From Promethearchaeia archaeon (lineage in GTDB: Archaea > Asgardarchaeota > Lokiarchaeia > Sigyniarchaeales > SOKP01): a stretch of DNA of 64,000 bases. A program made the position numbers and the translations under genes. Below are positions 25,006 through 53,475 of this stretch, one piece after another. The DNA lies in assembly GCA_029856045.1 (NCBI GenBank), contig JAHQWG010000046.1, positions 32,001 to 96,000 of the forward strand. Direction: 5' to 3'. Below the pieces are notes generated by a model. The model searched no databases. It saw only the letters and a list, made by a program, of their open reading frames with translations, and was not told where the DNA came from. Position 1 is the first letter of the stretch. Each line of letters begins with the position of its first letter.

Positions 25006-27402
25006 TTATAATGAACACTCTGTTCGGGCAATAATATCGTCTTGTGCATTTTGCGATAATTCGGTAAACAAAACAGAATAACCTGCAATTCTTACAACCA
25101 AACCTCTATATTCATCTGGATTTTTTTGAGCATCAAGGAGAATTTTTTTTCCAACAACATTGAATTGTACCTGGAAACCACCATCAGGTCCAAAAAATGT
25201 TCTTATCAGAGCCGGAAATAATTCTAGCTTTAAAGAATTCGGATGAAATGTCAAAATAAGCGAATTTCCGTTAGTCATTAAATGATTCTGAAGTTTACTG
25301 ACCGAATTAAGAATAGCTGTGGGACCATTTTTATCCATGCCATTTGAAGGGCAGAGACTAGTTGAAAGGACATCCCTTGATTTTCTTCCATTAGCAGAAG
25401 CACCTGTAAAGAAACCAAAAGCTAAATGAAATGATGTTGAGTAGAAACCAGGATTAAATTTTCCACCTCGATAATTTGTATGCTTTGTAATTTCATCACA
25501 ATATACTTTTACCACATCCATAGCAATTTGGTCAACATAATCATCATCATTGCCAAATTTTGGAACTTTATTAATAAATAACTGCCTCCATTCTTCTCCT
25601 TTTCTTCCTTGATAGGTTCCTCTATAATTCTTTCTGAGCATTTCCACTAAATCTTCAAATGGGAGAATATTTTCTTCAAAAACAAATTTCTTAATTACTG
25701 CAAGACTATCCACTACCGTAGCAAAGCCAACTAATTGTGGTCCAGTAAAGTCATATACTGCACCACCATTTGTTATATCAAGTCCTCGTTCAATACAATC
25801 ATCTGTAGTTGCAGATAAAAATGGCTGAGGATTAAGTTCGGAAATTGCTTTATCAAGGGCATTCATAGTTGAAACCATAAAATTAACAAAATATTTCATT
25901 TGATTAACAAATGCATCCCAAAGATCATCATAACTAGCAATTTTTTTATCATTTTTATATCCATATTCCCTTCTAGTAAACATATCAATTCCATTTGCTA
26001 ATGCTAATTCTAAACATTTTACGACATTAATTTGGTTTGCATTGGTTGACCCAAATGATTTATGTGGATGTTGCGGTTCAACACAGCCGATTGGCGCATA
26101 TTCACGAGCATCTTCAAGTGTAAAACCAAGATTTACAAGTCCTTTTATCATTACTTGATCATTAAATAAAGCAATACTTGCGCCCGATTTTATGGATTCT
26201 CCAACTTTAAAAAGAAAATCTTCTGGTGTCTCTTTATGAATTCGAACGGAAAAAGTTGGTTGAACAGTTTTTAAATTAGTATATGCGTCTAATAAGAGGT
26301 ATGATAATTCATTTGTTGCATCGTTTCCCTCACTGTCAACTCCTCCTATCGTTAAATTTTCTGCTATTGGGGGTCCTTCAGCAGCAACAATACCTTTACT
26401 TAGAAGATAATTCCACAATGTTGTTAATTTTAAAAAAAATAATTCAATTAGAAATTGTACTTCATCATTTGAAATTTCTCTTTCGCTTGTATCTTTTAAA
26501 TAATATGGGTATAAATATTGATCTAATCGGCCAATACTTATTGCAAAGCCACCATCTTCCAAGCCAGATATTAAATGAGTAAAATAAATAAGTTGAAGAG
26601 CCTCTTTAAATGACTTTGGTGGATTTTCAGAAATATTGTAACAAATTTCAGAAATTTCAAGAAGTTCTTCTTGACGTTTAGAATTTAATTCATTTTTCGC
26701 TAAATCTTTAGCTAAATTTGAAAATCTTTGAATAAAAGATCTTACTGTATTACAAACAATTATAACAGACTGTAAAAAAATTCTTTTTTTGGTATTTTCT
26801 GGAGTCGAATCAGAAAAATTCTTCATTTTTTCCTCAGCTTTTTGAATTAGACCATTTATTCCATATTTCAAAACATTTTCATGTCCAGGAAAAAAATGAC
26901 CAATGCCATTGGAAAGTTCGGTATCAACAATAAAAACAAGTTTTTCCATCATATCTATTTCATCAGAATTTAAATAAGTTAGAAACCTTGCTCGAACAGT
27001 ATGTTCTTCATTTTTCCAATAAGGAATTATCTCTTCCTTTAGGAATTTTCTCTCTTCATTCGATATGATAAGTGGTTGTACAGGACGACTCTCATAAGTA
27101 TCACAATCTTGTTCAATTGTATCAACTCGAATTTCGGGATATAATGGAGTTCCTACAAATTTAGTCGTTCGGTTACCAACAATAAATTCATTATCCCAAA
27201 TAATTATAGTCATATTAGATAAATAATGTTCCATAGCTTTTGCGAATCGAATTATTGGATTTTCTCCTTTTGTTTTTTTATATGATTCCGTGATTAATTT
27301 AGCTCTTTCCATACAAATTTCTTTCGATTGCTTCACAACTTTTTTTCTCATTTCTAGAGTTCTTTGCTTATAATTTAAATGGGAAACTTGTTCTAACTGC
27401 AA
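25006..27402 (-). CDS. Glycyl radical enzyme (PFL-like, GCVEP eliminase/dehydratase type)
   Basis: SIGRLDQ, PIGCVEP thiyl loop, C-terminal VRIAGYS glycyl loop. Confidence 0.93.
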   Translation of the reverse strand: MQLEQVSHLNYKQRTLEMRKKVVKQSKEICMERAKLITESYKKTKGENPIIRFAKAMEHYLSNMTIIIWDNEFIVGNRTTKFVGTPLYPEIRVDTIEQDCDTYESRPVQPLIISNEERKFLKEEIIPYWKNEEHTVRARFLTYLNSDEIDMMEKLVFIVDTELSNGIGHFFPGHENVLKYGINGLIQKAEEKMKNFSDSTPENTKKRIFLQSVIIVCNTVRSFIQRFSNLAKDLAKNELNSKRQEELLEISEICYNISENPPKSFKEALQLIYFTHLISGLEDGGFAISIGRLDQYLYPYYLKDTSEREISNDEVQFLIELFFLKLTTLWNYLLSKGIVAAEGPPIAENLTIGGVDSEGNDATNELSYLLLDAYTNLKTVQPTFSVRIHKETPEDFLFKVGESIKSGASIALFNDQVMIKGLVNLGFTLEDAREYAPIGCVEPQHPHKSFGSTNANQINVVKCLELALANGIDMFTRREYGYKNDKKIASYDDLWDAFVNQMKYFVNFMVSTMNALDKAISELNPQPFLSATTDDCIERGLDITNGGAVYDFTGPQLVGFATVVDSLAVIKKFVFEENILPFEDLVEMLRKNYRGTYQGRKGEEWRQLFINKVPKFGNDDDYVDQIAMDVVKVYCDEITKHTNYRGGKFNPGFYSTSFHLAFGFFTGASANGRKSRDVLSTSLCPSNGMDKNGPTAILNSVSKLQNHLMTNGNSLILTFHPNSLKLELFPALIRTFFGPDGGFQVQFNVVGKKILLDAQKNPDEYRGLVVRIAGYSVLFTELSQNAQDDIIARTECSL

Positions 27403-27638
27403 TTTAAATCACTAAAAATCGTCAAATTTTTATTTTAATTTAATAGATTAAATAAAACTATATAATTAATTGAATAAATAATTCTCGAAGATAAATATAT
27501 TTAATATATATATCAAAAATTGGTTGAAGATAAAAGAGTTTTTCACTAAAAATTTTAAAAATTTGATTAGTAGAAATATAACTGCTAATGTGAAAGGAAA
27601 GGGAAAAAAAAAGAGATTAAATAAATTTATTAATTTAA

Positions 27639-48076: not shown

Positions 48077-49414
48077 ATGAAAGAAAAATTTAATAATCAG
48101 CCATTAAGAGGAATGGTAGATCGTTTCCCTCCTGATTTGAGGGAAGAATATTACATAGTTAATAAAATTAGGGAGCTTTCTAAAAAATATGTTTATGAAG
48201 AGTTTGAAGCTCCTCTCTTGGAACCTATAGAAATTTACGCTGCAAAATCTTCAGAAGAGTTGGTAAATGAACAATCATTTACTTTTAAGAGTAAAGGTGG
48301 AGGTAAATTAATACTACGACCAGAATTAACTCCTTCTTTAGCTCGAATGATATCAAGAAAAAGTCAGGAAATGAAAAAACCCATTCGTTGGTTTAGCGTT
48401 CCAACTTGTTATCGATACGAGAGACCCCAGAGAGGGCGAACGAGAGAATTTAAACAGATTAATTTTGATATTTTAGGTGGGATTGGTTTATTAGAAGAAG
48501 TTGAAATCTTCAATATATCTGTGGATATTTTTACGTCATTTGGAGCAACAAATGACCAATTTCAAATATATTATAATAACAGACGACTAATTGATGCGAT
48601 TTTTAAATTTATTCTTAAAATTCCTGACAACATTTATATGAAAGTATATAAGGCACTTGATAAATCTGATAAAATGGTTGAAGAGGAATACCAAAAATAC
48701 TTAATGGATACTTTTAACGATGATAAATTAGCAAAGAATATTATACAATTAAATGAGATTGATAATATTGAGAAAATACCTTATGATAACATTCCGAATG
48801 AATTTTATAATTCACAAGGATATCAAGAAATAAAACAATTACAAATATTATTAAAAGAAACGAATTTGGAAGAATATTGCACTTTTTCAGCCGGAATAGT
48901 AAGAGGGTTAGATTATTACACAGGAACTGTATTTGAAGTATATGATACAGAAGAAAAAAATAGAAGATCTATTTTTGGTGGCGGTAGGTATGATGATTTA
49001 TTAAATTTATTTTCTAATGAACAGATATCTGGGATTGGTTTTGGAATGGGATTATTATCACTTAAATTGTTTTTACGAACTTATAACTTGATTCCAGAGA
49101 ACATAAAAGAGTTAGATTATTCAGATATTATTTATGTAACAACATTTAGTAGCGAATTGGCTCCTTTAAGTATTAAATTATCTCAAAAGTTTAGAAGAAT
49201 GGGTTTTAGATGTTTTATTGATTATTCTTGTGAAAAATTAGGAAATCAAATAAGTAAAGCTAATGAATTAAATTGTAAAGCAATTGCAATAATTGGTCCT
49301 CAAGAACAAGAAGAAAAGTCTGTAACTATTAAAAATTTACTCACTAATACCCAAAAAACACCAAAATTAAAAGATTTAAATGTAAATGTTCTAGAAGATA
49401 TACTTAAAAAGTGA
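48077..49414 (+). CDS. hisS: Histidine--tRNA ligase
   Basis: LRPELT, YRYERPQRGR.REF.Q, VRGLDYYTG, GGGRYD. Confidence 0.97.
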   Translation: MKEKFNNQPLRGMVDRFPPDLREEYYIVNKIRELSKKYVYEEFEAPLLEPIEIYAAKSSEELVNEQSFTFKSKGGGKLILRPELTPSLARMISRKSQEMKKPIRWFSVPTCYRYERPQRGRTREFKQINFDILGGIGLLEEVEIFNISVDIFTSFGATNDQFQIYYNNRRLIDAIFKFILKIPDNIYMKVYKALDKSDKMVEEEYQKYLMDTFNDDKLAKNIIQLNEIDNIEKIPYDNIPNEFYNSQGYQEIKQLQILLKETNLEEYCTFSAGIVRGLDYYTGTVFEVYDTEEKNRRSIFGGGRYDDLLNLFSNEQISGIGFGMGLLSLKLFLRTYNLIPENIKELDYSDIIYVTTFSSELAPLSIKLSQKFRRMGFRCFIDYSCEKLGNQISKANELNCKAIAIIGPQEQEEKSVTIKNLLTNTQKTPKLKDLNVNVLEDILKK

Positions 49415-49420
49415 ATTTTT

Positions 49421-50398
49421 ATGGGTAAAAATTTTGCAGATGAGTTAATTTCACAAATTAGGGAGAAAAAATCAATAATTTGTATCGGTTTAGATCCTCG
49501 GCTACCAGATGATAAGGAAACGTATTATATTCCACAATTTTTAGTAAATGAATTTAATGATAATTCTAAGGTGATATTTGAATTTAATAAAAGATTGATT
49601 GATGCTACAGTTGAATTTACTCCAATTTATAAACCAAACATAGCTTTTTATGAAAAATATGAGGCATTAACAGGATTAAAAAAAACAATAAAATATATCC
49701 AAAATAAAAATGCTTTAGTTATTTTGGATGCAAAAAGAGGAGATATCGGAACTACTTGTCAAGTATATGCTTCAAATCTTTTTGAAGGGTATAATGCTGA
49801 TTCAATAACTCTAAATTCTTATTTCGGAAGTGATGGAGTAGAGCCATTTATATCCTATAAAGAAAAAGGATTTTTTACACAAGTTAAAAATTCAAATAAA
49901 AGTTCTGTAGAATTTCAAGATTTATTCTCAATTCATTTAGAAAATATTCCTATTAAACAAGTTTCAATTAAGATTGACAAAATTAAAGGAGATCAGACAA
50001 TTTTAGAGCGAAATTTTATACATATGGCACGTCTAGTTAAAGAATGGGGAAAAGAGTTAATAGGAATAAACGGGTACAGTTCATTTGGTGCCGTAGTGGG
50101 CGCAACTTTCCCTGAACAGATGATCTCAATTCGAAAGATTTTAGATAATTGCTTTCTATTAATTCCGGGTTATGGCACACAAGGTGCTACAGGGGAGGAC
50201 GTGGTTCATGGAGTAAATGATGATGGATTGGGAGCAATTATTAATTCATCCCGAAGCATTGATTTCGCATATCAGAAACTGAATTATTCTAATAAGTTCT
50301 CTCCCGAAAATTTTGATAAAGCAGCAAGTGAAGCTGCATTGAAAATGAGGGAAGATATTAATAGAAAATTAAAACAGAATAATAAAAATATCATTTAA
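49421..50398 (+). CDS. pyrF: Orotidine-5'-phosphate decarboxylase (subfamily 2 type)
   Basis: CIGLDP, KPNIAFYE, DAKRGDIGTT, GAVVGAT, PGYGTQG, NSSR. Confidence 0.95.
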   Translation: MGKNFADELISQIREKKSIICIGLDPRLPDDKETYYIPQFLVNEFNDNSKVIFEFNKRLIDATVEFTPIYKPNIAFYEKYEALTGLKKTIKYIQNKNALVILDAKRGDIGTTCQVYASNLFEGYNADSITLNSYFGSDGVEPFISYKEKGFFTQVKNSNKSSVEFQDLFSIHLENIPIKQVSIKIDKIKGDQTILERNFIHMARLVKEWGKELIGINGYSSFGAVVGATFPEQMISIRKILDNCFLLIPGYGTQGATGEDVVHGVNDDGLGAIINSSRSIDFAYQKLNYSNKFSPENFDKAASEAALKMREDINRKLKQNNKNII

Positions 50399-50976: not shown

Positions 50977-52941
50977 ATGGAAACTGAAGAAATAAGAATA
51001 TTTGTAGCAGTATGTCGTTGAGGGATAAATATTGGTGGATACATCGATACAAAAGCTTTAGCTGAATATGCCAAAACATTACCTAATGTTGTAGCATCAA
51101 CAGACTACATAAGTATGTGTACCGAAGGAGGTGCAGTATTTATAAAAGAGAACATGGAAGAAGCCAATTGTAATAGACTAATAGTTTGTGCTTGAACCCC
51201 AATAACACATGAACCCGTATTTAAGAAGGTTCTGGAAGGAATTAATATTGATCCATCTTATTTAGAATTTTGCAATATTAGGGAGCATTCATCATTAGTC
51301 CATATGCATGATAAAGAAGGCGCATTAAAGGTGGCAAAAGATTTGCTTCGTTCAGCTGTAGCAAGAGCTTTAAAATTAGAAAGAGTTCTAATTAGAGAGG
51401 TTGATGTAATCGATAAGATACTAATCATTGGTGGAGGAGTTGCTGGTTTAAAGACTGCTATTGAATTAGCAGAAGAAAATTTCGAAGTATTTTTAGTGGA
51501 AAAAGAACCCACAATTGGTGGGAAGATGGCGATGCTTGACAGAACATTCCCTACTGACGATTGTAGCATTTGAATTTTGGGACCTATAATGCTAGATGTT
51601 GCCCGAAATGAAAAAATAAGATTATTTACATATTCTGAAGTATCAGATATATCAGGATATATAGGGAATTTTTCTGTTGAAATTACTAAAAAGCCAAGAT
51701 ATGTGAAGGATATTTGCAATGGCTGCAGTGCATGTATGGATGTTTGCCCCGCGCATGGTTATAACGAATTTAATCTTGGATTAAATCCTAGACCTGCGAT
51801 TTATATTAGTTTTCCACAGGCAGTTCCTTCACTTGCCCAAATTGATATGGATAAATGCATCAAATGTGGTTTATGCATTGAGGCTTGTGAGTTAGAAGCA
51901 ATAGATTTTGACCAAAAAACTGAAAAAATAAATGTAGAAGTGGGAACAATATCTGTAGCTACTGGTTGGGACGAATATATTCCAGAGGATGGTTATTTAG
52001 GATATAATAAATATGATAACGTGATTACTCAATTACAACTTGAACGAATTTTAGCACCAAATGGGCCAACAATGGGGCAACTTGTAAGACCATCTGATGG
52101 AAAGGAACCCAAAAGGATTTTATTTATACAATGTGTTGGCTCGCGAGATCTTAATAGAAACGTATATTGTTCAAGTGGAGTATGTTGTATGGTAAGTATA
52201 AAGAATTCAAAACTTATTAAACAGCATTACCCAGATGCAGATATTACCGTTGCTTACATGGATATACGTGCATCGGGAAAATATTATGAGGAATATTACA
52301 CTGCTTCTAGAATAGCAGGTGTAAAGTATTTAAGAACTAATATTTCTCGAATTGAAGAGGTTTCTGAAACGAAAAACTTGAAAATTTTAGTCCAAGATAC
52401 ATTAAGAGAATCTTTAGGTGTTCAAGAGATGGAATTTGATTTAATTATTCTATCTGCTGCTATGATACCTAATTATGATATATTATCGCTGAATAAAGTA
52501 TTAAAATTGGAAGTTTCTCCGGATGGTTTTTTCAAAGAAACACACGCAAGATTAGAACCAATAAATACTAAAATTCCAGGTATATCGCTTGCAGGTGTTT
52601 CTCAAGGTCCAAAGTCTATTGCTGAGTCGATTATGCAAGCCGGGGGATCCGCATCATCAGCGGGTAAATTAATGACACGCAAAAAATATAAAATAGATCT
52701 GATAATTGCAGAGGTCGACAAGGAAAAATGTAGCAAATGTGGGTTATGTATTTTAAACTGCTCATATAATGCTATTAATATGACGGAAGATGGAGCTGAA
52801 GTTGATGAAATTAACTGTCGGGGTTGCGGTTCATGCCTTTCAAATTGTCCAAGTGAGGCAATAACTTTAAGATATTACAGAGAATCACACTATGAAGCCC
52901 AAATTGATGCAATATTAAAGGAGTTTGAAGAGGTGGCATAA
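50977..52941 (+). CDS. hdrA: Heterodisulfide reductase subunit A-like flavoprotein, selenoprotein with 3 Sec (654 aa)
   Basis: One continuous frame from ATG 50977, with TGA at 51019 (VCRUGINIGG), 51193 (CAUTPITHEP) and 51571 (FPTDDCSIUILGP), each at a conserved HdrA Cys. Also GGGVAG FAD motif, QCVGSRD, ferredoxin motifs. Confidence 0.95.
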
Positions 52942-52945
52942 AAAG

Positions 52946-53362
52946 ATGGAAGATTTTAAAATTTTAGCTTTTCTATGTTTGAAATGAGGTTATGGAGCGG
53001 CAGATATGGCTGGAACGATTCGTGCACAATATCCTACCACAATTAGACCAATTAGAGTAAACTGTACTGCAAGAGTAACTCCAAGTTTAATCATGAGATC
53101 AATTGGTAATGGAGCCGATGGAGTATTGGTAATTGGGTGATATCCAGGTGAATGTGATTATGAAATTGGAAATAAAGTTGCTTTAAAAAATGTGGAATAT
53201 GCACAAGAAATCTTAAAAACTATTGGTTTTAACCCAGAGAGAGTATTAATGGAGTATTGTAGCTCAGCCGAAGGAGATAAATTTCAAAAAACTGCAATAA
53301 ATACTTCGGAAAAGATTAATAAACTTGGAAAAAATCCCCTCAACAAATTAAAAACCGAATAG
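52946..53362 (+). CDS. mvhD: MvhD/VhuD/FlpD [2Fe-2S] subunit, selenoprotein with 2 Sec (138 aa); absent from the ORF track
   Basis: MEDFKILAFLCLKUGYGAADMAG...IRVNCTARV...GADGVLVIGUYPGECDY...NPERV...SSAEG. TGA at 52985 and 53138; TAG at 53360-53362; GAGGTG SD inside the hdrA 3' end. Confidence 0.95.
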
Positions 53363-53386
53363 AATGAATAATATGAATAAATTCTA

Positions 53387-53429
53387 GTTGTATTATGACT
53401 TCCTATTGCAATAGGATTCGGAATTACAC
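53387..53429 (+). promoter_or_regulatory. Candidate SECIS element (eukaryote-like AUGA/GA core) in the 3' UTR
   Basis: UGUA-UU-AUGA(53395-98)-CU-UCCUAUU-GC-AAUAGGA-UUCG-GA(53421-22)-AU-UACA, followed by a U-tract. Confidence 0.75.
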
Positions 53430-53475
53430 TTTTTTAATTTTTATGGAAATATTTAAAAAAACTTAATGAAAATTA

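Follow-up and report, generated by a model that had tools for sequence, protein, structure and literature searches.

The locus studied here raises the question of how two adjacent genes broken by five in-frame TGA codons are decoded, and of whether the one SECIS element visible downstream serves both of them. In the window, the 64-kb stretch of DNA that we analyzed, a standard gene caller returned only fragments of hdrA and mvhD. The first-pass annotation had joined these fragments across five in-frame TGAs into a 654-residue HdrA and a 138-residue MvhD, encoded by genes that end in TAA and TAG and lie 4 bp apart; we recovered the same five positions, with genes of these lengths, stops and spacing.

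hdrA and mvhD as selenoprotein genes

Both genes lie on the same strand, with hdrA upstream. The hdrA gene (50977..52941, +; 654 aa, TAA stop) encodes heterodisulfide reductase subunit A, an FAD/[4Fe-4S] protein containing three Sec residues, of which Sec15 (TGA at 51019..51021, +; CxU-G) and Sec73 (51193..51195, +) fall in the N-terminal domain and Sec199 (51571..51573, +) occupies the canonical DCxxU site, corresponding to Sec197 in Methanococcus maripaludis HdrA. The mvhD (vhuD) gene (52946..53362, +; 138 aa, TAG stop) encodes the [2Fe-2S] adaptor with Sec14 (52985..52987, +) and Sec65 (53138..53140, +). A Shine-Dalgarno-like GAGGTG for mvhD is seen in the sequence within the last hdrA codons (52930..52935, +), and a similar motif is present at most orthologous hdrA-mvhD junctions. 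A T-run at 53430..53435 (+) is a possible archaeal terminator.

With TGA read as U, HdrA matched the NCBIfam HdrA model over residues 7–651 (E 8e-228), with a score under the cut-offs set for longer methanogen models (762–777 positions), and it aligned along its full length with solved HdrA structures. Residues 5–133 of MvhD matched VhuD/FlpD models, and on a fused HdrA2 model the two proteins covered consecutive parts (HdrA, positions 1–645; MvhD, 648–773). Structure alignment placed the HdrA Sec sites on Cys residues of 5ODC HdrA, residue 199 on an X (non-standard residue) of 9SFI HdrA, and both MvhD Sec sites on Cys in 9SW2 and 8RVU. Residue 105 of the window HdrA (51279–51296) is Ser, where solved HdrA proteins have Cys (NIREHC motif).

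Orthologues carried TGA or TGT/TGC at the five sites and nothing else. Of eight Sec-type relatives, all had TGA at site 199, six at site 15 and two at site 73, with TGT or TGC otherwise; Sec73 was the most variable site and was TGT/TGC in several close relatives. Eleven more distant loci had TGT/TGC at all three HdrA sites, and a SECIS was absent from all 3 of these Cys-type loci whose mvhD was scored. Two TGA codons were found in nearly all of the best 150 MvhD matches from 161 genomes of the class. The earlier proposal that each TGA aligns to a conserved Cys is thus upheld by the exchange of TGA and Cys codons in orthologues and by the Cys residues in solved structures. These comparisons confirm, at the level of sequence, that hdrA and mvhD are genuine Sec genes belonging to a genome of the Promethearchaeota (Lokiarchaeia).

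The host genome (G000; C plus a number denotes a contig within a genome) is 3.34 Mb long and 100% complete, and the closest loci come from Promethearchaeota metagenome-assembled genomes, at 95% to 58% identity. The Sec machinery that the first-pass annotation had proposed to look for is present: SelD, which has its own in-frame TGA, SepSecS, a PSTK-like kinase (E 6e-43, under the TIGR03574 family cut-off), EFSec/SelB and a tRNA-Sec with anticodon TCA. On contig C1 (G000:C1:885-6582), a cluster of less than 6 kb contains the genes for SepSecS, tRNA-Sec and EFSec. Four Sec-type hdrA-mvhD pairs were found in this genome (contigs C46, C15, C32 and C44), the window operon being one of them, together with seven Cys-type mvhD copies beside HdrA-like genes.

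Outside Sec sites, TGA is an ordinary stop in this genome. Of 1376 long ORFs, 174 end in TGA, and the frame then stays open for a median of 9 codons, similar to what is seen after TAA and TAG; the frequency of TGG is 10 per 1000 codons. Within the window (48077–50398), the TGA stop of hisS (49412–14) is in frame with pyrF, which begins 6 nt on; there is no SECIS near, and we read this codon as an ordinary stop.

A single SECIS, probably shared by two cistrons

The lokiSECIS core (53364..53398, +) consists of AUGA (53364–67), starting one base beyond the mvhD stop, a 9-bp helix (53368–76 with 53388–96) enclosing an 11-nt loop, and GA (53397–98). All nine helix pairs are formed, four of the first five loop bases are A, and the loop ends in AG. 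This element meets the lokiSECIS (type I) definition given in the text of Mariotti et al. (PMC4989117), where the core is predicted to adopt a kink-turn and to bind protein. The distance to the core is 2345 nt from the first UGA and 226 nt from the last.

To search for further elements, we trained a covariance model on 32 elements taken from mvhD and vhuU genes. Because the window element was included in this training set, only the absence of further window elements is informative: in the 64-kb window the model gave a single match, the mvhD 3′ element, with the next best at E 2.1. It found no second lokiSECIS in or before hdrA, a search that would miss a SECIS of a different type. These results agree with the first-pass annotation, which had seen only one SECIS. 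Rfam SECIS families gave no match at the operon; standard SECIS tools also missed lokiSECIS elements, according to the text of PMC4989117. A plain IUPAC SECIS pattern run on 161 genomes without pairing constraints was too noisy, and a relaxed genome scan allowing long loops gave matches that were mostly due to chance. The RNAfold minimum-energy structure of this A+U-rich copy is not the SECIS fold, which is expected for a non-canonical core and is no confirmation of it. The hairpin preferred by RNAfold at 53395–53421 was rejected as the SECIS core; it has a spacing of 22 nt where 29 would be expected, and the AUGA that it would supply shares bases with the 3′ arm of the true core.

We consider it very likely that the locus as a whole is a Sec-type hdrA-mvhD operon with one mRNA and a shared 3′ lokiSECIS, and from the sequence we infer that the single element serves both cistrons. 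Following Mariotti et al. (2016), hdrA and mvhD would be carried on one mRNA, whose 3′ SECIS, with its kink-turn-type AUGA/GA core, would recruit EFSec with Sec-tRNA and serve ribosomes in either cistron, at any UGA lying upstream by more than a minimal distance. A SECIS that acts on upstream UGAs would therefore require hdrA to stop at UAA or UAG; the mvhD stop abuts the SECIS, so that UGA would be allowed there. The hdrA stop was TGA in none of 34 Sec operons and the mvhD stop in eight of them, and two of 10 Cys-type hdrA genes stopped at TGA, counts that come from kin genomes and are not independent. HdrA and MvhD are a textbook protein pair; the products here would be an electron-bifurcating HdrA flavoprotein and MvhD as its [2Fe-2S] input adaptor, and Sec199 would form part of the Cys/Sec pair located close to the flavin. 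The other two HdrA Sec residues (Sec15 and Sec73) and both Sec residues of MvhD stand in for conserved Cys residues that we take to be putative Fe-S ligands. We searched HdrA literature, including PMC13518236 and PMC13580544, and found no such ligand role assigned to Sec15 or Sec73. In M. maripaludis HdrA, Sec197 and a Cys form a pair located between the flavin and the Fe-S clusters, the role of Sec197 being described as unresolved (PMC13518236; see also PMC13580544).

Two other accounts of the five TGAs were weighed against the shared element. One holds that hdrA is recoded through a separate signal of a different type, placed in the 5′ leader or the coding sequence, and that the 3′ SECIS serves mvhD only. 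The SECIS of methanococcal fdhA is located 5′ and provides a precedent, and recoding over 2.3 kb across a stop codon is not known from experiment. However, neither the Rfam SECIS families nor the lokiSECIS model matched at hdrA, the 5′ region folded no better than shuffles (z 0.18), and the avoidance of a TGA stop by hdrA fits a downstream signal; an RNAz scan reported in the text of PMC4989117 likewise found no other conserved structure. We regard a separate signal for hdrA as improbable. The other account, that TGA is reassigned genome-wide to Trp or Cys, or that we are looking at pseudogenes or assembly errors, would agree with the fragmented gene calls, but these TGAs are found again in paralogues and in genomes independent of this one, only at conserved Cys positions, and the ORF ends and TGG usage given above also speak against it. 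It is refuted by the Sec/Cys exchange and the ordinary use of TGA as a stop, and we give it almost no weight.

The shared-SECIS operon is not new in kind. The first-pass annotation had credited Mariotti et al. (2016) with eukaryote-like SECIS elements in Lokiarchaeota, but the text of that paper (PMC4989117) already describes the hdrA-vhuD tandem itself, in which as many as six UGAs spread over ∼2 kb share one SECIS, on purely computational evidence. The published tandem has the same gene order, a very short gap, a two-Sec VhuD, a multi-Sec HdrA that includes the canonical site near 200, a single 3′ SECIS with a 9-bp stem and 11-nt loop, and an hdrA stop that is never UGA, over a span of ∼2 kb; we see no difference in kind from what the paper's text describes. 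The shared-SECIS inference is therefore a rediscovery, and the window operon would be one more example of the published claim that a single SECIS recodes multiple UGAs in two successive cistrons. Huang et al. (2024; PMC11227280), covering more than 400 Asgard genomes, state in their text that hdrA and frhD are always adjacent and that almost all hdrA-frhD clusters share one eSECIS-like type I element. The M. maripaludis Hdr-Vhu-Fwd system (PMC13518236) has homologous proteins, with Sec at the DCxxU site (U197) and a two-Sec VhuD; its HdrA differs in having one Sec rather than three, a euryarchaeal-type SECIS and a part in methanogenesis. Eukaryotic type I SECIS elements share with the window element the AUGA/GA core, the apical adenines, the 3′ location and action at a distance, whereas the window element has a shorter helix (9 bp), a polycistronic context and an extra side hairpin.

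Related loci show other arrangements. On contig C44 of the host genome (G000:C44:59122-56640, −), a ferredoxin motif of a paralogous HdrA contains a fourth TGA, at the position aligned with Cys297 in the window protein; the C44 mvhD ends in TGA directly beside a type II SECIS that has a side hairpin, giving six UGAs for one element. An orthologous HdrA in another genome (G028:C11) has a further TGA aligned to residue 595, in the C-terminal ferredoxin region. At G006:C3:39991-43067, HdrA is followed directly by its own SECIS with a side hairpin, with no mvhD between, and the HdrA stop is the TGA of the SECIS AUGA.

A side hairpin beside the core

The palindromic hairpin favored by RNAfold (53401..53416, +), with a 6-bp stem and a UGCA loop, is a second, conserved hairpin 3′ of the core. 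In the whole SECIS fold (53355..53421, +), a lower helix pairing 53355–59 with 53417–21 closes a three-way junction, and the 5′ arm of this helix is made of the last mvhD codons. In a MAFFT alignment that had not been fitted to the structure, all five side-hairpin pairs examined had changed on both sides and 86% of cells paired, and sliding the pairing partners destroyed this signal. The lower helix paired in 56% of cells in the MAFFT alignment and 66% in a fitted one, the lower figure being partly due to MAFFT leaving some rows one column out of register; outside mvhD elements this helix was weak or missing.

All 66 elements chosen by core pattern alone had a side hairpin containing two or more G-C pairs, whereas shuffling the bases of these flanks would give ∼8 such elements; in three large gene-family groups, the hairpin loop contained a G-pyrimidine step in 62 of 64 elements. 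By eye, the hairpin was also recognized at model-selected elements after selD, prx-like and vhuU genes and after mvhD in two other Asgard families, as well as at loci picked by protein only, namely after the Jordarchaeum mvhD and in four distant families. The selD 3′ region of the host genome (G000:C44 ∼100400–100500, −) has a long stem, an AUGA/GA core, an apical mini-stem and apparently the same side hairpin (z −3.9); this element was not detected by the lokiSECIS covariance model.

The side hairpin goes unmentioned in the text of PMC4989117 and PMC11227280, so that it is probably undescribed so far. Literature searches on Asgard SECIS elements with a three-way junction, and on selenocysteine at UGA in promethearchaea, returned nothing. 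The text of PMC11227280 describes a model made up of the core, the upper stem and the apical loop, and reports that no flanking nucleotides are highly conserved, whereas the 3′ flank of the window element carries a conserved hairpin with a G-pyrimidine loop. Comparative evidence establishes that the hairpin exists, and it would most likely be a structural component of the Asgard SECIS. A competing explanation is that it lies outside the recoding signal, as a terminator or RNA-stability element that is merely downstream. The A/T-rich sequence and T-run (53430) that follow it, and the position of many such SECIS elements at the ends of transcription units, are in keeping with that explanation, but the hairpin keeps a near-constant distance from the GA core and its loop motif, is enclosed by the lower helix in mvhD elements, and also occurs where the next gene is close by on the same strand (vhuU on C35 and mvhD on C32). 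We therefore think a downstream terminator or stability element unlikely, if a serious contender.

The broader proposal, that the Asgard SECIS is larger than published, with a conserved 3′ side hairpin that has a G-pyrimidine loop, often lies in a three-way junction and is needed for recoding, and with a fuller model that reveals unlisted Asgard selenoprotein families, is put forward tentatively, at slightly less than even odds. The hairpin might, for example, be a contact for EFSec or the ribosome where SBP2 is not found, and would be absent from eukaryotic SECIS elements; SBP2 was not detected in Loki, according to the text of PMC4989117. The unlisted families would include a ubiquitin-fold protein with two adjacent Sec residues and a small membrane protein with a Gly-rich Sec tail. 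If the Asgard SECIS does include an additional conserved domain, that would bear on the origin of the eukaryotic Sec system before SBP2. The hairpin also suggests concrete mutations, and it sharpens the search model, pointing to families of Asgard selenoproteins that are cut at UGA by annotation.

Candidate selenoproteins outside the window

A 2026 review of archaeal selenoproteins names 11 families in its text. Six canonical SECIS elements were found in the host genome, two of which follow ORFs outside the families named there, and these two merit follow-up of their own more than the hdrA-mvhD operon does. In two other genomes (G099:C220 and G146:C4), a SECIS follows a small TGA-containing ORF of unrecognized family, one a membrane ORF and the other possibly a zinc-ribbon ORF.

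The first candidate is a 153-aa ubiquitin-fold Cys-Sec-Sec protein encoded on contig C32 (G000:C32, ORF ∼26956–27414, +; with its element, to 27489), in which Gly-Cys-TGA-TGA is followed by 38 conserved codons. Beyond the tandem TGA there are no stops in this frame versus 88 and 90 in the other frames. Homologues were found in 135 of 161 genomes of the class; the tandem TGA was present in all 32 examined, most with a SECIS 110–150 nt downstream, and four distant families also carry both. Variants of the motif read Asp-Sec-Sec and Sec-Gly-Sec-Sec, and many members seem to start at ATT or ATA after a GGTGA site. The predicted structure (pLDDT 88) was weakly closest to SAMP1/Urm1 (best E 1.5e-3), and no Pfam or NCBIfam family matched. 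Most database entries end exactly at the TGA, and a few homologues with a single Cys read on. Since no database homologue had Cys-Cys at both sites, the assignment of Sec relies on the SECIS and conservation, and we propose this protein as a candidate new selenoprotein family.

The second candidate is a single-pass membrane protein of 49 aa (G000:C10:2362-2511, +; with its element, to 2610) with a Gly-Gly-Gly-Sec motif, the C terminus reading Pro-Pro-Pro-Asn-Gly4-TGA-Cys-stop. We take this tail to resemble those of SELENOK and SELENOS, in likeness only and with no homology implied. It is likewise a candidate new selenoprotein: similar Gly-rich TGA tails with a SECIS occur in four genera, and in its own genus the UGA is only ∼40 nt from the SECIS core.
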